Positions 55,840 to 64,000 of a DNA stretch of 64,000 bases are shown piece after piece (position 1 is the stretch's first letter; each line of letters starts with the position of its first letter). A program made the position numbers and the translations under genes. The notes beneath the pieces were generated by a model. That model was not told where the DNA came from. It searched no databases and saw nothing but the letters and a program-made list of their open reading frames with translations. This DNA is from an uncultured Bacteroidales bacterium (GTDB lineage: Bacteria > Bacteroidota > Bacteroidia > Bacteroidales > ML635J-15): the NCBI GenBank assembly GCA_937982115.1, contig CALJNE010000027.1, positions 462 to 64,461 of the forward strand, read 5' to 3'.

Positions 55840-56379
55840 TTATTTTTCTTTTATTCTTGTCAGGAAAAATTCGTCCTTTTGTTCTTTACCAAATTTATCT
55901 TTACCCGAAATGAATGCTTTTATACTATCCTTTGAGATATACTGATATACAATATATTGTGGATAATCATTGGCGGCATTGTGAAAATAATAAGTGCGAT
56001 TTTCGGATTTCACCAATTCAAAATTTACAGATCCTACAGTAACAACATCTTCTGCAAAACTGACAATGTAAAAAATTTTCCCTTCGCTATTTATTGAAAT
56101 ACGCAAAAATTCTTCAAACACAGTATCATTATCAGCAATCATATAACCCCTGCCTTTAAGACTTCCATCCTTATCCTGCCACCAAGATTCATAATAAAAA
56201 AATTCAGGATTTATATCCTGCCAGTCTCCTATTAACCAGGTCAAAGAATCAATGATAAAACTTGAAATCTTTATTTCATCTTGATTTTGATTTAAAGTCT
56301 CTTTTTTCCCGAAAAAATTACAGGACAAAACTAAAAACGAAATAAAAACAAAAACAAGATATCTAAATTTGAACTTCAT
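55840..56379 (-). CDS. DUF6265-like lipoprotein
   Basis: I moved the start to MKFKFRYLVFVFISFLVLSC (lipobox). The blocks WLIGDWQ and NDYPQYIVYQYISKDSIKAFISG resemble DUF6265 conserved blocks. Confidence 0.45.
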   Translation of the reverse strand: MKFKFRYLVFVFISFLVLSCNFFGKKETLNQNQDEIKISSFIIDSLTWLIGDWQDINPEFFYYESWWQDKDGSLKGRGYMIADNDTVFEEFLRISINSEGKIFYIVSFAEDVVTVGSVNFELVKSENRTYYFHNAANDYPQYIVYQYISKDSIKAFISGKDKFGKEQKDEFFLTRIKEK

Positions 56380-57763
56380 AACCTTTAAGAGGAATCTCAA
56401 TATTAGAAAAGCCTTCATTTTCGAGATAATTTTTGAAAAACTCAGCAGAAATTTGTTCTCCGTGAACAAGAAAAATTTTTTGCAATTTATCTTTATCCTG
56501 ACATTTAATATATTCTGTCATTTCTTCATAATCTGCATGACCGCTAAAAGATTCCAATTTTTTAATATCTGCCCGGATAATATGCTCTTCACCAAAGATG
56601 GAAATTTTATCTAAGCCTTGTTGCAAGCGGGCACCTAAGGTAGTTGGAGCACAATAACCTACAAAAAGAATTGTATTTTTAGGATTATCTATGCTATTGG
56701 CAATATGATGTTTTACCCTACCGGCTTCAGCCATACCGCTGGCAGAAATTATTACACAAGGTGAGTTTCTGTCATTTAACCTTTTTGATTCTACAATATC
56801 ACGCACATAATGCAATGTCGGGAAATTAAATGGATAGGGGTCTTCCTTAAGGCTTTCGGTTAGTTCCTCATTAAAGCATTCGGGATGCATCTTAAAAACT
56901 TCGGTAATATTAACAGAAAGCGGGCTATCAACAAAAATATCAATTTGAGGTAGAATCCCTTGATTATACCAATTGTTCAAAGTATTTACAATTTCTTGAG
57001 TTCGTCCAACACTAAAAGAAGGGATTATTAATTTGCCTTGTTTTTCAACGCAGGTATATTTCACAATATCTAAAAGAGCAAATTCTGATTCATGCTGAGT
57101 TTCGTGTTTCCGATCTCCGTAAGTAGATTCACAAATTAAAACATCAGCTTGTGGAAAAGCTGCCGGTGGTTTTAAAATTTTATTTTTAGGACGTCCGACA
57201 TCTCCTGTATAAGCAATATTTATCAGTCTGTCGTCTTCTTTTATAGTGATATATGCAACAGCACTGCCCAACATGTGTCCACTGTTGATAAACTTAACAG
57301 TAATATTTTGATCTATTTTAAATTTTCTGTCGTAGGCCACACCTATAAACAACTTCATGGCTTTTATAGCATCGTCGGCGGTGTATATTGGTTTTACAGG
57401 AGGGAGTCCTTTTTTTGCCAGTTTTTTGTTAAACCATTTTGTATCGTGTTCTTGTATATAACCACTATCTGCCAGCATCAAAGAACACAAATTTCGTGTT
57501 GCATCGGTACAAATTACAGAACCTTCAAAACCTTGCTTAAAAACGTAAGGAATAAGTCCTGAATGATCAATATGAGCATGTGTTAAAATTATATGATCAA
57601 TTTCTTTTGGGTCGAAACCTAAATCACGGTTTGCTTTATCAGTTTCCATTCCTTTGCCCTGAAACATTCCGCAATCTAGAAGAATTTTTTTTCCAAAAGA
57701 AGTTTCAATCAAGTGCTTACTTCCGGTTACTTCACCTGCTGCACCCAAAAAAGTGATTTTCAT
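56363..57763 (-). CDS. MBL-fold / beta-CASP RNA-metabolising hydrolase
   Basis: The N-terminus MKITFLGAAGEVTGSKHL, HAHIDHSG, a beta-CASP region and a C-terminal RMMBL-like end (SGHADYEE...VHGE) are present. Confidence 0.8.
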   Translation of the reverse strand: MKITFLGAAGEVTGSKHLIETSFGKKILLDCGMFQGKGMETDKANRDLGFDPKEIDHIILTHAHIDHSGLIPYVFKQGFEGSVICTDATRNLCSLMLADSGYIQEHDTKWFNKKLAKKGLPPVKPIYTADDAIKAMKLFIGVAYDRKFKIDQNITVKFINSGHMLGSAVAYITIKEDDRLINIAYTGDVGRPKNKILKPPAAFPQADVLICESTYGDRKHETQHESEFALLDIVKYTCVEKQGKLIIPSFSVGRTQEIVNTLNNWYNQGILPQIDIFVDSPLSVNITEVFKMHPECFNEELTESLKEDPYPFNFPTLHYVRDIVESKRLNDRNSPCVIISASGMAEAGRVKHHIANSIDNPKNTILFVGYCAPTTLGARLQQGLDKISIFGEEHIIRADIKKLESFSGHADYEEMTEYIKCQDKDKLQKIFLVHGEQISAEFFKNYLENEGFSNIEIPLKGYEVQI

Positions 57764-57774
57764 AAAAAAGATTT

Positions 57775-58149
57775 TTAGTTTTTATTTGATTTTAGTCTTT
57801 CCTGAAGGACCTGTAAAATATCAGAATTATTTGTCATTTCAAAAATCAGCTTTCGTCCATCTTTGCTTTCAATCTCAAATTTCAAATTTTTAAAACGATC
57901 CGTTTTATTAGTATGTGGTAATGGTTTTAAATTTGAAATATCTTTAAAAAGTAAATTTGATACTTTTCGAGCAGATGATATTTTAAATTTAAGCTTCGAG
58001 TTAATAAACGATAATGGTTTGAGATAAGTATTTTTAAATTCAATAAACAATTCATTTTCAGTTACATAAATATCAGAATCTCTTTCAACAAAACTATTTT
58101 TTTGCAAACTTGCCTTCTTTTGAATAATAACTTTTTCAAATCTTTCCAT
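57775..58149 (-). CDS. hypothetical protein (124 aa), divergent from the cytochrome operon
   Basis: I recognised no motif. I moved the start to the ATG (MERFEKV). Confidence 0.4.
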   Translation of the reverse strand: MERFEKVIIQKKASLQKNSFVERDSDIYVTENELFIEFKNTYLKPLSFINSKLKFKISSARKVSNLLFKDISNLKPLPHTNKTDRFKNLKFEIESKDGRKLIFEMTNNSDILQVLQERLKSNKN

Positions 58150-58229
58150 AACCCGAAAATGAGTTGACAAACTTATAAAATTATTTTTTCATAATTGCAA
58201 ATTTTGTTTTGAAAAATTCTAATTATTTT

Positions 58230-58330: not shown

Positions 58331-59923
58331 ATGGAAATATTTGAAAGTTTTAAAAAGACATTTCTCTTCATTTTTATTGTTATTTTCCCGCTAACCATTA
58401 TTACTTTAGGGTTTAGTAATTTCTTTGAAAAAGAGGGTAATTTAGGAGAGTTAAAAGAAAAATACTCCAGGAAGAAGATTTCATCTGTGGATCATTCAAA
58501 GTTTGAAATTTTACAAAAAGACTTCAAGGATCCTCATGAAGTTACTGAAGCTTGTTTAAGTTGCCATACAGAGAGAGGAAAGGAATTAATGAGTACAGCA
58601 CATTGGAATTGGGAAAGAGAAGAATATATCGAAGGCAGAGGCATCACCTATTTAGGTAAAAAGAATTTGATAAATAATTTCTGCACAGGAATAATGACAA
58701 ATGAACGTTCGTGTAATAAATGTCATGCAGGATTGGGATGGACAGATAAAAGTTTTGATTTCAACAATCAATTAAATATAGATTGTTTGGTTTGTCATGA
58801 TAAAACCGGCACTTACGAAAAAGCTACGGGTATGGGCGGACATCCACCGGTAGGAGAAGATGCTCCGGATTATAAAAATATAGTGGCAAACGTTGGAAGG
58901 CCAATGAAACATAATTGCGGATATTGTCATTTTAACGGAGGTGGAGGGAACAATGTTAAACATGGCGATCTTGAAACAGCTTTACTTAATTGCGACCGAA
59001 ATGTGGATGTTCACATGGCAAAAGATGGTCTTGATATGAACTGTGTTGATTGCCATCCTGCTGAAAATCATCAAATTAAAGGAAAATATTATGCAGTATC
59101 TTCAAGTAATAAGAATCGAGCATATTGCACAGATTGTCATAATCCTGCACCACACAAACAGCAAATTTTAAACGAACATACCATAAAAGTTGATTGTCGC
59201 ACTTGCCATATTCCGCATTATGCAAAAGTAAATCCGACAAAACTTTATTGGGACTGGTCAACTGCCGGAGCAATAAAAGATGGTGAAGGATACTCCGTAA
59301 CAGACAGTTTAGGCAGAGAAGTTTATACTTCAAAAAAAGGCACTTTCATTTGGGGGACAAATGTTCAGCCCGAATATGTATGGTTTAACGGAACTGCTGA
59401 TCATTTTTTGATTACAGACAAAATAGAAACCGACACCATTAATATTAATACTCTATTTGGGTCATACGTTGATCCTAATTCAAAGATTATACCCATAAAA
59501 ATTCATAAAGGAAAACAGCCTTACGATTTAAAATATAAAACGTTATTACAAGCCAAATTGTGGGCTCCCGAAAAAGGAGAAGGGGCATTTTGGATGGATT
59601 TGAATTGGGATATTGCATTAAAATTAGGAATGGAATACGTTGGTTTACCTTTTAGCGGGCAATACGGATTTATAAATACAAGAGCATATCTACCTGTAAG
59701 CCACATGGTATCAAAATCCGAAGACGCAGTTTCTTGTAAAGAATGTCATAATCGTAAAAACAGCCGACTTAAAAACGTACCCGGAGTTTACATCCCAGCT
59801 ACAAGCTATAATAAAAACATAAATATGGCCGGAACTGCCCTAATGTTATTATCATTACTAGGAGTTTTAGGACATGCCGCTCTAAGAATAAGAGCTTCAT
59901 ACAAAAAAAAAACATCAATTTAA
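58331..59923 (+). CDS. octaheme c-type cytochrome, tetrathionate-reductase (OTR) family-like
   Basis: Eight CxxCH motifs are present (CLSCH, CNKCH, CLVCH, CGYCH, CVDCH, CTDCH, CRTCH, CKECH), with no CxxCK. Size is 530 aa. There is an N-terminal hydrophobic anchor or signal and a C-terminal hydrophobic helix (AGTALMLLSLLGVLGHAAL). Multiheme status is certain; OTR-family membership is a by-eye call. Confidence 0.7.
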   Translation: MEIFESFKKTFLFIFIVIFPLTIITLGFSNFFEKEGNLGELKEKYSRKKISSVDHSKFEILQKDFKDPHEVTEACLSCHTERGKELMSTAHWNWEREEYIEGRGITYLGKKNLINNFCTGIMTNERSCNKCHAGLGWTDKSFDFNNQLNIDCLVCHDKTGTYEKATGMGGHPPVGEDAPDYKNIVANVGRPMKHNCGYCHFNGGGGNNVKHGDLETALLNCDRNVDVHMAKDGLDMNCVDCHPAENHQIKGKYYAVSSSNKNRAYCTDCHNPAPHKQQILNEHTIKVDCRTCHIPHYAKVNPTKLYWDWSTAGAIKDGEGYSVTDSLGREVYTSKKGTFIWGTNVQPEYVWFNGTADHFLITDKIETDTININTLFGSYVDPNSKIIPIKIHKGKQPYDLKYKTLLQAKLWAPEKGEGAFWMDLNWDIALKLGMEYVGLPFSGQYGFINTRAYLPVSHMVSKSEDAVSCKECHNRKNSRLKNVPGVYIPATSYNKNINMAGTALMLLSLLGVLGHAALRIRASYKKKTSI

Positions 59924-59934
59924 TTTTATAAGTC

Positions 59935-60603
59935 ATGAAAAAAGTATATATTTATAAAGTATTCGAAAGATTTTGGCACTGGACACAATCAATTTTGATA
60001 TTCACATTGGCATTAACCGGATTTGAAGTTAACGGAGCCTATGAAGTGTTAGGATACGAAACAGCAGTAAATGTTCATAATTTCTCAGCAATTTCACTTA
60101 TCATTCTGATAATTTTTGCGATATTCTGGCATTTTACCACAGGAGAATGGAGACAATACATTCCTACAAAGAAAAACATGAAAGCTCAGATAGAATATTA
60201 CATTACAGGAATTTTCCGCAATGCTCCTCACCCAACCAGAAAAACAATACTCAGTAAACTTAATCCTTTGCAAAGATTAACTTATCTGGCATTGAAAATT
60301 ATTTTGATACCTCTGATGGTAATAACCGGAATTTTATATATGCTATACAGATACGGTATGAATGGGGAGATTCATTCTTTAAAAATCGGTTCACTTGAGC
60401 CAATTGCACTATTGCATACTATAGGAGCATTTTTAATTTTGGCTTTTGTTATTGCCCATATATATCTAACCACAACCGGACATACTCCAACAAGTAATAT
60501 CAAAGCAATGCTTACAGGATGGGAAGAATTGGAAGACGATGATGATGAAAAAAAAGAAAATAATGTTAATACGGAAAAAAACGAAAAAAATGAAAATGAA
60601 TAA
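59935..60603 (+). CDS. membrane di-heme b-type cytochrome (PhsC/FdnI/HydC-like quinol-interacting subunit)
   Basis: The ERFWHWTQ start is typical of this family. It has four TM helices with conserved His (WHW, VHNF, WHF, LLHT, AHIY). The C-terminal tail DDDDEKKENNVNTEKNEKNENE is acidic and low-complexity. Confidence 0.75.
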   Translation: MKKVYIYKVFERFWHWTQSILIFTLALTGFEVNGAYEVLGYETAVNVHNFSAISLIILIIFAIFWHFTTGEWRQYIPTKKNMKAQIEYYITGIFRNAPHPTRKTILSKLNPLQRLTYLALKIILIPLMVITGILYMLYRYGMNGEIHSLKIGSLEPIALLHTIGAFLILAFVIAHIYLTTTGHTPTSNIKAMLTGWEELEDDDDEKKENNVNTEKNEKNENE

Positions 60604-61648
60604 ATTTTGGTTTGTTCTGGCACTTTTGCCGATTATGTTTTTTTCGAGTTGCAAAAATAAACCCGAAGAACAAGTAAAAGCTTCAGATAAATTTGAAGTT
60701 TTAATTAAATTTCTTGAAGAAAATAAAGATATTGTAAATTCTGAAGATGTACCTTTTTACGTGCATTCTGATGTTGTTTTTTCGGGACTGAAAAAGAATT
60801 TTTTGATAATTGACTTAAGAGATTCTGCTGATTTTACAAGCGGACATATAAATAATTCAATAAATGTTCTTCCTGAAAATATTCTTGATTATTTTGAAAA
60901 TAGGATAAATCCCCCGGTATTTGATACAATAGTTCTTGTGTGTAATACAGGGTTTAAATCAGGTTTTACAGCAATGTGTCTTAGATATTTAGGTTACAAT
61001 AATGTTTTCCCTTTAAAATACGGTCTAAGTGAATGGAATAAATCAATTGCAGAAACATATTGGTTACCTAATTTTAAAGACATTCCTTCTGAAGAAATAG
61101 ATACAGTAACTCATCCAAAAAATTCTCCCGGCAAATATCCGGAAATTATTTCATCTTTATCACAGCCCGAAGACATTCTATATGAAAGGGTAAGTCAATT
61201 ATTAAAAGGGAATTTTGAGGATTACTTTATTTCTTTAAAAGATATTTTAGGGAATGAAGATAATTATTATCTATTGTGTTATTGGCCACAAGAAAGATAT
61301 AACAAAGGACATCTTAAAGGTTCAGTGCAATATGAGCAAAAAAAATCATTAAGAACTAATGAATTCCTAAATACTTTACCAATTGAAAAAACTATTGTAG
61401 TTTATTGTTACTCAGGATTTCATTCAAGTCAGGTTACAGCATTTTTAAGAATTATCGGCTATAATGCAAAAGCATTAAGATACGGGAGTAATTCGTTTAT
61501 GTATAGTAAAATAAAAGAAGAAGAACCTTCGGGGCGATATTTTTCGGAAGATAATATTTTTGATTTTCCATTAAAAAGTAATGTTAAAACAGAACCGACG
61601 GGACCTGTTGAGCAAGGCAAAAAGACTAAACCAAAAGGAGGATGTTAA
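60590..61648 (+). CDS. lipoprotein with two rhodanese domains and a C-terminal ...KPKGGC tail
   Basis: MKMNKFWFVLALLPIMFFSSC (lipobox). There are two rhodanese modules with active-site loops VCNTGFKS and YCYSGFHSS, then a flexible linker ending GKKTKPKGGC-stop. The start overlaps the cytochrome b stop by 14 nt. Confidence 0.8.
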   Translation: MKMNKFWFVLALLPIMFFSSCKNKPEEQVKASDKFEVLIKFLEENKDIVNSEDVPFYVHSDVVFSGLKKNFLIIDLRDSADFTSGHINNSINVLPENILDYFENRINPPVFDTIVLVCNTGFKSGFTAMCLRYLGYNNVFPLKYGLSEWNKSIAETYWLPNFKDIPSEEIDTVTHPKNSPGKYPEIISSLSQPEDILYERVSQLLKGNFEDYFISLKDILGNEDNYYLLCYWPQERYNKGHLKGSVQYEQKKSLRTNEFLNTLPIEKTIVVYCYSGFHSSQVTAFLRIIGYNAKALRYGSNSFMYSKIKEEEPSGRYFSEDNIFDFPLKSNVKTEPTGPVEQGKKTKPKGGC

Positions 61649-62181
61649 AACTAAAATCAAACAATATGAATCAGCATGATAAAGAAATAAAACCTTACAT
61701 GAATCCTTATCTGGCAGGATTCTTACTTGGAGTATTACTATTGTTAACAATTTTTATTTCCGGACGAGGTCTTGGAGCAAGCGGAGCAGTAAAATCAGCC
61801 GTAATTGCGGCTGCTAACGTGATAAATAAGAATGCCCCTCAAATTTCTGATTTTTTCAAAACACAGGAAAACCCACTAAAATCCTGGTTAGTTTTTGAAG
61901 TGTTGGGAGTTATGTTTGGAGCTTTTCTATCCGGTTTTATATCCAACAGATTAACATGGAAAATTGATAAAGGGCCAGGAATAAAGAACCATACAAGAAT
62001 TATTTTTGCAGTTGTTGGTGGAGCTCTTTTTGGAATAGGTTCGCAATTCGGAAGGGGTTGTACATCAGGCGCTGCGTTAAGCGGAATGGCCGTTTTCTCT
62101 GCCGGAGGATTTCTAACAATGATGGCAATATTTGGAACCGGTTATGTTCTTGCATACTTTTTTAGAAAATTATGGTTATAA
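61642..62181 (+). CDS. YeeE/YedE family sulfur-compound transporter, half-size subunit
   Basis: NPYLAGFLLGVLLLLTIFISGRGLGASGA and the conserved FGRGCTSGAALSG motif are present, with about four TM helices. The true start may be the Met at 61666. Confidence 0.8.
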   Translation: MLKLKSNNMNQHDKEIKPYMNPYLAGFLLGVLLLLTIFISGRGLGASGAVKSAVIAAANVINKNAPQISDFFKTQENPLKSWLVFEVLGVMFGAFLSGFISNRLTWKIDKGPGIKNHTRIIFAVVGGALFGIGSQFGRGCTSGAALSGMAVFSAGGFLTMMAIFGTGYVLAYFFRKLWL

Positions 62182-62198
62182 TTTAAATTTTTAAAGAA

Positions 62199-63416
62199 AT
62201 GGGACCACTAATACCTCAAAATATTATAAGCGGAGATTTAAACTTTTTCTTTGCTTTTCTCATAGGCGTAGCGTTCGGGTATATTCTCGAACAGTCCGGA
62301 TTTTCTTCCTCACGTAAACTTGCTGGAGTTTTTTATGGATATGATTTTGTTGTTCTTAAAGTATTTTTTACAGCCGGAATAACAGCAGCAACAGGAGTTT
62401 TCTTCTTTAGTTATTTGGGTTGGCTTGATATGGATATGGTTTACGTAAATCCTCTATATGTTAACTCCGCGATTATTGGTGGAGTTATTATGGGTTTTGG
62501 TTTTATTATGGGAGGATTTTGCCCGGGAACAGGAATTGTTGGTGCTGTAATCGGAAAAATTGATGCCATATTTTTTGTTATAGGAATTTTTATCGGAGTC
62601 TTTATTTTTGGTTATTTCTTTAACTCTTTTGAACCAATATATCATGCAAATTATAAAGGCAGCATGTTTGTTCACGATGCTTTAGGAATGTCGCAATCCT
62701 GGTTTTTATTTGTGCTTGTAATTGTGGCAATTATAGCATTTATCATAACTCAAAAAATTCAAGACAAATCAACCCGTTTTAAAGAATTAATTTCAAACAC
62801 TCAAAGTTTAAAAGCAACATGGACTGCAGCATTTATCATAATTTTAGCTTTTATTGCTATTTTCTTACCAAAAGAAAGAGTTAGTTATCTTTCGGAAATA
62901 AGCTCTGAAAAACTTGCAGAAGAAATTCGCAATCCAAACCGAAAATTACCCCCTGAACGTATCGCATACAGCATAATACACAATCTTAACGACCTTGTCC
63001 TTGTTGATGTTCGTTCGCCTCAAGAATATTCAGAATTTCATTTTCCGGGAGCAATAAACGTTCCTGTCAATCAAATTTTAAAACCCGAATTTAAAGATAT
63101 TGCTTTTGCTGAAAATAAAAAAACAGTATTCTACTCAAATGGAGGACAACTTTCTGAAATAGCATGGTTAGCCGCTGCAAGAGCAGGAAAGAAAAATGTT
63201 TATGTTTTGGCAGGTGGTTTAAATAATTTTATTAAAGTTATTTTTGGAGATGTTCCGAAATCAGAAGTTAAAGATATAATGGAATTAAGCGACAGAAAAT
63301 TCATTGAATCAGCCAGAACATTTTTTATGGAAGGTGAATTATCAAAACGTCAGATAATTTCTTCTAAACCGGCATCAAACCCGGGAATAACAAAAAAAGC
63401 TAAAGGTGGATGTTAA
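62199..63416 (+). CDS. YeeE/YedE half-transporter fused to a Cys-less rhodanese domain, with a C-terminal ...KAKGGC tail
   Basis: The N-terminal half carries the GGFCPGTG motif and TM helices. The C-terminal half has a rhodanese fold (LVLVDVRSPQEYSEFHFPGAINVP...VFYSNGGQLS...LAGGLNNF) in which Ser replaces the catalytic Cys. The final residues are ITKKAKGGC-stop, and this is the only Cys in the soluble part. Confidence 0.8.
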   Translation: MGPLIPQNIISGDLNFFFAFLIGVAFGYILEQSGFSSSRKLAGVFYGYDFVVLKVFFTAGITAATGVFFFSYLGWLDMDMVYVNPLYVNSAIIGGVIMGFGFIMGGFCPGTGIVGAVIGKIDAIFFVIGIFIGVFIFGYFFNSFEPIYHANYKGSMFVHDALGMSQSWFLFVLVIVAIIAFIITQKIQDKSTRFKELISNTQSLKATWTAAFIIILAFIAIFLPKERVSYLSEISSEKLAEEIRNPNRKLPPERIAYSIIHNLNDLVLVDVRSPQEYSEFHFPGAINVPVNQILKPEFKDIAFAENKKTVFYSNGGQLSEIAWLAAARAGKKNVYVLAGGLNNFIKVIFGDVPKSEVKDIMELSDRKFIESARTFFMEGELSKRQIISSKPASNPGITKKAKGGC

Positions 63417-63428
63417 AATTTTACAAAT

Positions 63429-64000
63429 ATGAAAGACAATCAATTATTTAACGGATCACTCATATTTTTTGTTATAATTATTGGTGCTCTGCTTATTAGT
63501 GCCATTAACAAAAATTATAAAGGATATAAAATTTCAAATAATGAATTTATAAATCATTTTAGTTCTCCGGACCTTGTTATCAACTGTAAAGAATTAAACA
63601 AAATTCTGGATACAAAATCTGATGATTATTTAATTGTTGATATTCGCAATCAAAATCTTTATAAAGCTATAAATATTCCCGGCTCTGTAAATATTATACC
63701 AGAAAAAGCCTTTGAAAAAGAAACTATTAGATTCCTTAAAAAATCAAATAAAAACATCTTAATAACATCCGATTCTCAAGAACAAGCTACTATTTATGCA
63801 GCATATTTTACTAACCTTGGCATTAAAGGGCTGAAAATTATTTCCGGTTCACCAGAATTGTATATTCAACAAAAAAATAATCCATCTTACTCTTTCTATA
63901 ACTCTGAAAAACAATCCTTCTCATATAGAAACTTTATCAAACTTGAAGAAAAAGACGAATCAAAAGACCTTAACCCGATTATGCAAAGAGCCAAAGGCGG
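63429..64000 (+). CDS. membrane-anchored rhodanese-like protein, truncated by the window end at ...MQRAKGG
   Basis: My own translation gives MKDNQLFNGSLIFFVIIIGALLISAI (TM)...YLIVDIRNQNLYKAINIPGSVNI...NILITSDSQEQATIYAAYF..., open to position 64000. Ser occupies the active-site position. The last readable residues are A-K-G-G. Confidence 0.7.
   Translation, partial: MKDNQLFNGSLIFFVIIIGALLISAINKNYKGYKISNNEFINHFSSPDLVINCKELNKILDTKSDDYLIVDIRNQNLYKAINIPGSVNIIPEKAFEKETIRFLKKSNKNILITSDSQEQATIYAAYFTNLGIKGLKIISGSPELYIQQKNNPSYSFYNSEKQSFSYRNFIKLEEKDESKDLNPIMQRAKG

Follow-up and report, generated by a model that had tools for sequence, protein, structure and literature searches.

Rhodanese proteins with a conserved C-terminal Gly-Gly-Cys, encoded beside YeeE-type channels and quinol-linked reductases: putative periplasmic sulfur-carrier arms

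How poorly soluble or unstable forms of sulfur (S8, polysulfide and thiosulfate) are delivered to periplasmic reductases and across the cytoplasmic membrane is an open question of anaerobic sulfur cycling. A sulfur locus lies at the end of a 64,000-nucleotide (nt) stretch of contig CALJNE010000027.1 of an uncultured Bacteroidales bacterium (hereafter the window). This locus is a single co-directional string of six genes on the + strand, encoding an octaheme cytochrome, a membrane cytochrome b, the two halves of a YeeE-type channel and proteins with rhodanese domains, one of which is fused to a channel half. According to the original prediction, three consecutive rhodanese proteins of this locus share a Lys-Gly-Gly-Cys tail that serves as a mobile persulfide or polysulfide carrier. 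We found Gly-Gly-Cys (GGC in one-letter code) followed by a stop codon in all three, and the same ending in distant homologues of each of them, with a variable residue at the position of the Lys. The ending probably forms a flexible periplasmic sulfur-carrier arm.

Three consecutive proteins ending in Gly-Gly-Cys

The first of the three is a lipoprotein (60590-61648, + strand) with two rhodanese domains, seen as two PF00581 stretches, and a disordered tail encoded at approximately 61580-61645. It terminates in ...KTKPKGGC, its last codons being GGA GGA TGT TAA (GGC motif at 61637-61645). The second (62199-63416, + strand) joins a PmpB-like N-terminal YeeE half (PF04143 profile positions 6-196) to a rhodanese domain (PF00581); the tail of this fusion is encoded at 63348-63413 and its end, ...TKKAKGGC, by GGT GGA TGT TAA (motif at 63405-63413). 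The third gene encodes a small rhodanese (PF00581) with an N-terminal membrane anchor and no catalytic Cys. Its start, earlier placed at 63430, was corrected to 63429, and the window edge cuts it 7 nt short (63429-64000, + strand), at ...MQRAKG(G). Matches of the three tailed proteins to PF00581 were 1.4e-26, 5.6e-17 and 3.2e-9.

The end of the third protein could be read from an identical metagenome protein and its contig. Protein P0001 (192 aa) is identical to the third open reading frame (ORF) across all 190 residues readable in the window (190/190) and finishes with ...MQRAKGGC. In the 91-kb contig of this protein (L001), in which the gene order is as in the window, the third gene ends GGC GGT TGC TAA; read from this contig, it would end at 64007, 7 nt beyond the window. 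The expected Cys-stop was thus found, and the Gly codons do differ among the three copies, as had been noted. Recent nucleotide duplication was rejected as the source of the shared ending, as the codons differ among the copies and three separate families each retain the tail. An exact-sequence look-up of the fusion protein gave no match.

Within the window, 889 stop-to-stop segments of at least 30 aa were counted and two of them, the lipoprotein and the fusion, end in GGC (2/889). The frequency expected for this ending from the amino-acid composition of the window is approximately 4.5e-5 of proteins.

Conservation and specificity of the ending

Relatives of the fusion family were found, with one genome taken per species, in at least 582 loci, and the best 80 of these were fetched. 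They belong to Bacteroidales, Lentimicrobiaceae, Prolixibacteraceae, Ignavibacteriales, Kapaibacterium, Chlorobiota, Calditrichota and candidate division LCP-89; one fetched locus comes from a cultured strain, Carboxylicivirga caseinilyticus. The complete locus sample comprised 85 sources, 81 of them independent, with 1278 ORFs of at least 80 aa.

The ending was retained in four families: the YeeE-rhodanese fusion, the tandem-rhodanese lipoprotein, the third-type anchored rhodanese and a stand-alone anchored rhodanese. Among the best 120 matches of the fusion, which share 44-94% identity, 117 end in GGC, as do all of the best 120 matches of the stand-alone protein (120/120). The fetched loci encode 32 third-type proteins, 29 with this ending, and 34 lipoproteins, 30 with it. 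The lipoprotein family as a whole is more varied: in 150 representatives (50% clustering) there were 50 GGC ends and approximately 10 more in which GGC is followed by one small residue. Such an extra residue (GGCS, GGCG or GGCE) is present in about 10% of lipoprotein-family tails. Family members that depart from GGC have GGCS or GGCG ends, a GAC end (one case), or are truncated or tail-less. When the tail-less rhodanese ORFs of the loci were all read beyond their stop codons, no in-frame GG-TGA, i.e. no selenocysteine variant, was found. Lipoprotein relatives without the GGC ending also lack the linker and the tail altogether; the tail is therefore a modular add-on.

Within the tail, conservation is concentrated in the last three residues. 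In the alignment of 116 fusion sequences C108, G404 and C405 are invariant and G403 is kept in at least 90%, while the 20 residues before GGC are unconserved. The residue that precedes Gly-Gly in the fusion homologues may be I, K, S, R, A, G, Q, T, D or E, and because of this variation the conserved motif is G-G-C-COOH, with Lys outside it. The earlier claim of a shared Lys-Gly-Gly-Cys tail thus stands for GGC-stop, present in all three window proteins, whereas the Lys is not conserved in homologues. Beyond GGC, the 285 distinct tails showed preferences only at positions -5 (V/A/G/I) and -6 (P/K/A). The linker, which has an excess of K, P and E, ranges from approximately 20 to 55 residues among the families and varies widely in sequence. 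Judging from these alignments, the motif is under strong selection while the adjoining linker varies.

The ending is also specific. It was found in 146 of the 1278 ORFs of the locus sample, each of them a rhodanese protein of one of the four families, and in no unrelated ORF of the same loci (0/918), so the possibility that the motif is equally frequent on unrelated proteins could be set aside. Chance or composition as the source of GGC endings was rejected on the same count, compared with the 4.5e-5 expected per protein. The names supplied with the source sequences are all generic, mostly "rhodanese-like domain-containing protein" or "rhodanese-related sulfurtransferase".

A further feature of some tails is their charge. 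Stand-alone rhodaneses of operons with a Psr-type reductase (see below) have a strongly basic run before the motif, e.g. ...IKKRKKKKRVAGGC (locus L082, 10601-11230, and its family), unlike the window tails, which are only mildly basic. The basic run might attract polysulfide, which is anionic, or attach to the membrane or to an acidic surface.

Loss of the catalytic cysteine

In an active rhodanese a Cys opens the active-site loop. This residue was found in the lipoprotein family, and is absent from the fusion, third-type and stand-alone families. Both rhodanese domains of the window lipoprotein retain their active-site Cys and its lipobox Cys21 is invariant; across the family 90% of sequences have the terminal Cys, while the active-site Cys is found in 77% for domain 1 and in 87% for domain 2, and the lipobox Cys is kept as well. 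At the catalytic position of the fusion there is Ser or Gly and no Cys (23-sequence alignment), and outside the membrane domain the last residue is the only conserved Cys of this family. The terminal Cys is likewise the sole conserved one in the third-type family (28/28) and in the stand-alone family (41/42). Exactly one Cys, the last residue, is present in 117 of 120 stand-alone proteins.

Two of the three window proteins, the fusion and the third protein, are thus predicted to be catalytically dead rhodaneses. In the fusion, third-type and stand-alone families the reactive thiol appears to have shifted from the rhodanese loop to the end of the tail.

Operons with two types of reductase

A reductase is encoded directly upstream in 71 of the 81 independent loci, being of the Otr type in 41 and of the Psr/Phs type in 32, with 2 loci that have both types counted in each; of the other 10 loci, most have no sequence on the upstream side. 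The genes common to the loci are those for the reductase, the channel and the rhodanese only. The two linked reductase types share their substrate class and nothing else.

Type A operons, to which the window belongs, encode Otr, cytochrome b, an optional lipoprotein, the PmpA-like half, the fusion of the PmpB-like half with rhodanese, and an optional third rhodanese. In the window the first gene (58331-59923, + strand) encodes an octaheme c-type cytochrome of the Otr (tetrathionate reductase) family, with a TIGR04315 score of 560.5 bits against a cut-off of 375, a match to Pfam Cytochrome_cB and eight CxxCH motifs in its translation. It is a candidate for the periplasmic reductase of the module; the family was assigned by score and motifs, and the substrate is predicted. 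The second gene (59935-60603, + strand) encodes a membrane cytochrome b of b561/PhsC-like type (PF01292 Ni_hydr_CYTB, 2.3e-25), for which the top NCBIfam match, under its cut-off, is the thiosulfate reductase cytochrome b subunit. Its counterpart lies directly 3′ of the Otr gene in almost all fetched Otr-type loci, and the protein presumably couples quinol to the octaheme cytochrome.

The lipoprotein gene is followed by one for a PmpA-like C-terminal YeeE/YedE half (61642-62181, + strand; PF04143 profile positions 169-309), in which GRGCTSG is the equivalent of YeeE Cys293. The fusion gene comes next. It encodes, in this order, the YeeE half (with the invariant Cys108, in FCPGT, as the Cys91 equivalent), two more transmembrane helices, the Cys-less rhodanese, a conserved helix and the disordered tail. 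The two halves fit the PmpA/PmpB two-gene form of the PF04143 family, with Ser as the Cys22 equivalent; the half-size scheme and its Cys equivalences have been described (PMC11582611).

Type B operons, e.g. locus L082 (5609-11230), L031-L062 and others, begin with genes for a molybdopterin oxidoreductase of approximately 745 aa with a twin-arginine translocation (TAT) signal, a 4Fe-4S subunit and an NrfD-type membrane subunit, followed by the channel halves. One or two anchored rhodaneses, and occasionally a lipoprotein too, are encoded after both halves, and many of these Psr-type operons have one tailed protein only. The best match of the molybdoenzyme is the thiosulfate reductase PhsA (468 bits, under the equivalog cut-off). 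Three contigs (L014, L020 and L078) carry the two operon types side by side, each type with its own channel and arm. The minimal conserved unit consists of a split YeeE channel and one rhodanese with an arm, together with a periplasmic quinol-linked reductase.

No SoxZ-like or other conserved small ORF was seen in the loci, in which no SoxZ profile search was made. An E1-like adenylating gene is likewise absent from the fetched loci.

Predicted structure and topology

AlphaFold2 models of the fusion and the lipoprotein were built with family alignments (116 sequences for the fusion), and they match solved rhodanese structures. In the fusion the rhodanese domain has a predicted local distance difference test (pLDDT) score above 90 and is followed by a conserved helix (residues 360-383) and a disordered segment (384-405), in which residues 393-405 score below 50. 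The lipoprotein has a mean pLDDT of 91, and its residues from about 331 to 352, at 51 or less, lack secondary structure. An unstructured linker of 40-60 aa had been proposed; in both models the disorder extends over only approximately 20 residues.

The helix between the rhodanese domain and the tail of the fusion is amphipathic, with the pattern RFxxxARxxFxEG; F368 is invariant, and A372, F376 and G379 are kept in at least 90%. It may be a docking element.

The N terminus of YeeE is outside, and its helix H7 inverts the topology (PMC7449682). The membrane part of the fusion consists of a four-helix half, a fifth helix matching the YeeE central helix, a basic loop and a sixth helix, which should bring the chain back to the periplasm. 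Where the half-channel and the rhodanese are encoded by separate genes, the break lies in the basic loop and the rhodanese gene opens with an anchor helix of its own. The charge bias of these anchors is N-in, C-out in 39 stand-alone proteins (versus 1) and in 21 third-type proteins (versus 4). The lipoprotein and cytochrome c are extracytoplasmic by nature. Because of the fusion topology, the anchor charge bias and this extracytoplasmic location, every GGC arm is predicted to reside in the periplasm.

In neither of the single-protein models is the tail docked in a pocket, and confidence in the tail is low. These models bear on one alternative to a mobile carrier, namely a split active site, in which the terminal Cys would fold into the Cys-less rhodanese pocket of its own protein or of a neighbour and act as a short-range sulfurtransferase. 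The Cys-less domains retain the fold and the pocket residues D270, R272, R328 and G330 as well as the GGLN motif, and the tail holds the only thiol, as this explanation would have it. But the model built with 116 sequences leaves the tail out of the pocket, the lipoprotein is tailed even with both of its catalytic Cys intact, and the length range and variable sequence of the linker suit reach over a fixed intramolecular contact. We therefore consider a split active site unlikely.

A putative carrier arm and its alternatives

The reading that we favour is that of a flexible sulfur-carrier arm, because a strictly kept GGC sits on a variable, disordered linker, the catalytic Cys has been lost from most of the tailed families, the predicted site is periplasmic and the genes are linked to two reductases. 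Sulfane sulfur would be held covalently on the terminal thiol, in the form of a persulfide, polysulfide or thiosulfonate, and the disordered arm, of approximately 20 residues or more, would move it among three periplasmic sites. The first would be the rhodanese domains of the lipoprotein, whose catalytic Cys are intact and which could charge the arm, for example from thiosulfate. The second would be the active site of the quinol-linked reductase, i.e. Otr with cytochrome b in the window and a PsrABC/PhsABC-like molybdoenzyme in other genomes. The third would be the periplasmic mouth of the two-piece PmpA/PmpB channel, which has one rhodanese with an arm fused to it or next to it. Rhodanese domains without the catalytic Cys could then serve as scaffolds or docking modules.

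For the window operon we may speculate that the active rhodaneses of the lipoprotein pass the sulfane sulfur of thiosulfate, perhaps formed from tetrathionate by Otr, to the arm cysteines. The sulfur held by the arm might then be released as sulfide by the reductase or imported by the channel.

The mobile persulfide or polysulfide carrier originally proposed is partly supported. Conservation, specificity, the lone Cys, disorder, the predicted periplasmic site and the association with two reductase types all speak for it. The periplasmic location is inferred, and so are covalent loading, the partners of the arm and whether sulfur flows towards respiratory reduction, import or export. The original proposal included neither the replacement of the cytochrome by a Psr/Phs-type molybdoenzyme nor the lack of a catalytic cysteine in two of the three rhodanese proteins.

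Several points weigh against a carrier arm. All support for sulfur carriage by the terminal Cys is comparative or predicted. The model does not explain why a YeeE channel should belong to the operon of a respiratory reductase. One tailed lipoprotein, the orphan P0158, is encoded away from any reductase and is followed by an outer-membrane barrel (Alginate_exp; L087, 8001-10467), and one locus type (L012, 3407-11122, and L013) is without a reductase. The third protein of the window itself lacks the N-in charge bias common in its family. The undocked tail of the AlphaFold2 models is consistent with a mobile arm, yet points to no partner.

A disulfide tether or redox switch, in which the terminal Cys would pair proteins or gate the channel with no carriage of sulfur, is in our estimation quite improbable. 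Up to three proteins per operon expose the same thiol, and the channel halves retain Cys near the periplasmic mouth, both of which such a tether could use. Tail-tail pairing cannot be general, however, since many Psr-type operons encode a single tailed protein. A strict Gly-Gly ahead of the last Cys is what arms reaching into narrow active sites typically show, as in SoxY, and would be superfluous for a structural disulfide. The hosts, by the source names of their metagenome-assembled genomes, come mostly from anoxic, sulfidic habitats, and periplasmic disulfides would be disfavoured in such settings.

We regard as highly improbable a processing, sorting or attachment signal read by a protease, a sortase-like enzyme or a lipid transferase, comparable to double-glycine cleavage, GlyGly-CTERM or the ubiquitin-like Gly-Gly. 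Gly-Gly is a common protease and conjugation motif, and the residue beyond the Cys in about a tenth of lipoprotein-family tails might be read in this way. Nevertheless, no conserved protease, sortase or transferase gene was found across the 81 loci, the tail has no hydrophobic segment or other known feature of C-terminal sorting domains, and no model in Pfam and NCBIfam release 20 (June 2026) matches or covers it. The periplasm, moreover, is without the ATP that ubiquitin-like activation uses. It is hardly credible that the terminal thiolate binds the haem iron, copper or molybdenum of a partner or acts as a metallochaperone: Cys thiolates and persulfides do ligate haem in SoxAX and TsdA, and the window operon encodes an octaheme cytochrome, but the same tail stands beside a molybdoenzyme without cytochrome c in 32 loci, and no second ligand residue (His, Met or Cys) is conserved near the end.

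Comparison with known sulfur carriers

The SoxY GGCGG arm serves haem SoxAX, molybdenum SoxCD and SoxB. The tails described here resemble it in having Gly-Gly-Cys on a C-terminal peptide predicted to be mobile and periplasmic, and would likewise serve enzymes with different cofactors. They differ in being carried by a rhodanese fold (the six window proteins have no SoxY match in Pfam or NCBIfam), in having the Cys last, without the trailing Gly-Gly and with one further residue only in a minority, and in their context, which is that of quinol-linked reductases and not of Sox oxidation.

DsrC has a Cys near the tip of a flexible arm that enters the active site of a reductase. The likeness to DsrC/TusE is one of arm design only, i.e. 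a Cys that carries, or here would carry, sulfur at the tip of a mobile C-terminal arm; DsrC is cytoplasmic and has another fold and two Cys, and none of the present proteins matches the DsrC/TusE family.

Sud of Wolinella succinogenes passes polysulfide sulfur to polysulfide reductase, and the tailed proteins are linked by gene neighbourhood to Psr-like enzymes (32 loci with a PsrA/PhsA-like molybdoenzyme). The Cys of Sud, a soluble periplasmic protein, lies in the rhodanese loop, whereas here it is placed on a disordered tail and the proteins are membrane- or lipid-anchored or fused to a channel. Orthology to Sud was rejected, the match to PDB 1qxn being marginal (E = 0.22). According to a citation in PMC6378623, the single Cys of Sud is required for its polysulfide-sulfur transferase function.

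The YeeE/TsuA-YeeD/TsuB systems share the PF04143 channel and an adjacent or fused small partner with a single Cys, which binds, or here would bind, sulfur. YeeD has a cytoplasmic TusA fold, in contrast to the rhodanese fold, terminal Cys and predicted periplasmic location of the partner found here. For SoxYZ, too, it has been proposed that sulfane sulfur is handed on to a YeeE-like transporter (PMC11582611). With ThiS, MoaD and CysO the tailed rhodaneses would have in common a flexible Gly-Gly C-terminus that carries sulfur. Those proteins carry it as a thiocarboxylate on a beta-grasp fold after ATP-dependent activation in the cytoplasm, whereas here there is an additional terminal Cys, a rhodanese fold and a predicted extracytoplasmic site, and no beta-grasp domain was detected.

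In their working the GGC-tailed rhodaneses would thus resemble SoxY, DsrC and Sud, without being members of those families. In the open-access and bioRxiv literature we found no account of rhodaneses, or of other proteins of these operons, that naturally end in Gly-Gly-Cys, and the matches for "C-terminal GGC" there are engineered tags; an earlier account elsewhere is possible. What would be new is a cysteine-arm sulfur carrier on a rhodanese scaffold and in a new gene context, the arm principle itself being known.

If the carrier arm is real, the swinging-arm Cys principle would extend from SoxY (oxidation) and DsrC (sulfite reduction) to a third, rhodanese-based scaffold, and many "rhodanese-like" proteins without a catalytic cysteine would be accounted for. 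The GGC module ties two unrelated reductase types to a YeeE-type channel, and the terminal motif provides a recognisable, mutable handle: hundreds of operons each encode one to three proteins that bear it. A rule based on it would sharpen annotation and make it easier to predict which Bacteroidota of sediments, soda lakes and digesters respire sulfur. The system is present in several cultured Marinilabiliales, which makes experiments feasible.

More tentatively, Bacteroidota, Ignavibacteriota, Calditrichota and their relatives might practise a carrier-bound sulfur reduction that mirrors Sox, the reductases using arm-held sulfur and not free polysulfide or thiosulfate, and the arm gating passage across the membrane. 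We hold this wider proposal to be doubtful at present; were it true, GGC arms on Cys-less rhodanese scaffolds, tied to PmpA/PmpB, would be the real substrate of Psr/Phs-type and Otr enzymes.

Gene boundaries, flanking genes and further observations

Some genes of the window operon overlap or may do so. The lipoprotein start at 60590 lies within the end of the cytochrome b gene (stop at 60603), which encodes an acidic stretch rich in Lys, Glu and Asn, and the possible ATG of the PmpA-like half at 61642 sits inside the final codons of the lipoprotein gene, GGA TGT TAA (61637-61668 region). An alternative start for this half, ATG at 61666, is used in the gene call of contig L001.

On the upstream side of the operon, genes on the minus strand (55840-58170) encode a DUF6265 protein, a beta-CASP metallo-beta-lactamase and a 131-aa ORF. 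The metallo-beta-lactamase is RNase J-like and has a weak match to Anti-Pycsar Apyc1 in the contig annotation; the ORF, called at 124 aa in the contig, belongs to no family. In other loci these genes are not linked with the sulfur module.

Among relatives of the lipoprotein, the top scores belong to giant proteins, anchored in the membrane, that have up to 13 rhodanese repeats and no GGC tail: P0125 (2327 aa), P0126 (1654 aa), P0128, P0133 and P0143. In locus L082 the type B operon appears, from the translations and without a profile check, to be flanked by genes resembling those of molybdenum cofactor biosynthesis.

The locus type represented by L012 and L013 has, in its 5′ part, genes for a TetR regulator, an MMPL transporter, a LolA-like protein and a DUF1302 barrel. 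In its 3′ part lie genes for a tail-less lipoprotein and the channel halves, the fusion being truncated and ending ...DGGVKR-TAG, and a gene for a third rhodanese that does have the tail.

In some Otr-type operons an outer-membrane beta-barrel of the Alginate_exp family is encoded just 5′ of the tailed lipoprotein (L008, 21-1268; L015, 4017-5351; L010), and the lipoprotein may cooperate with an outer-membrane pore. A possible parallel is the Geobacter cluster of the rhodanese ExtH and the porin ExtI (PMC5877670), a comparison made at the level of the gene cluster.

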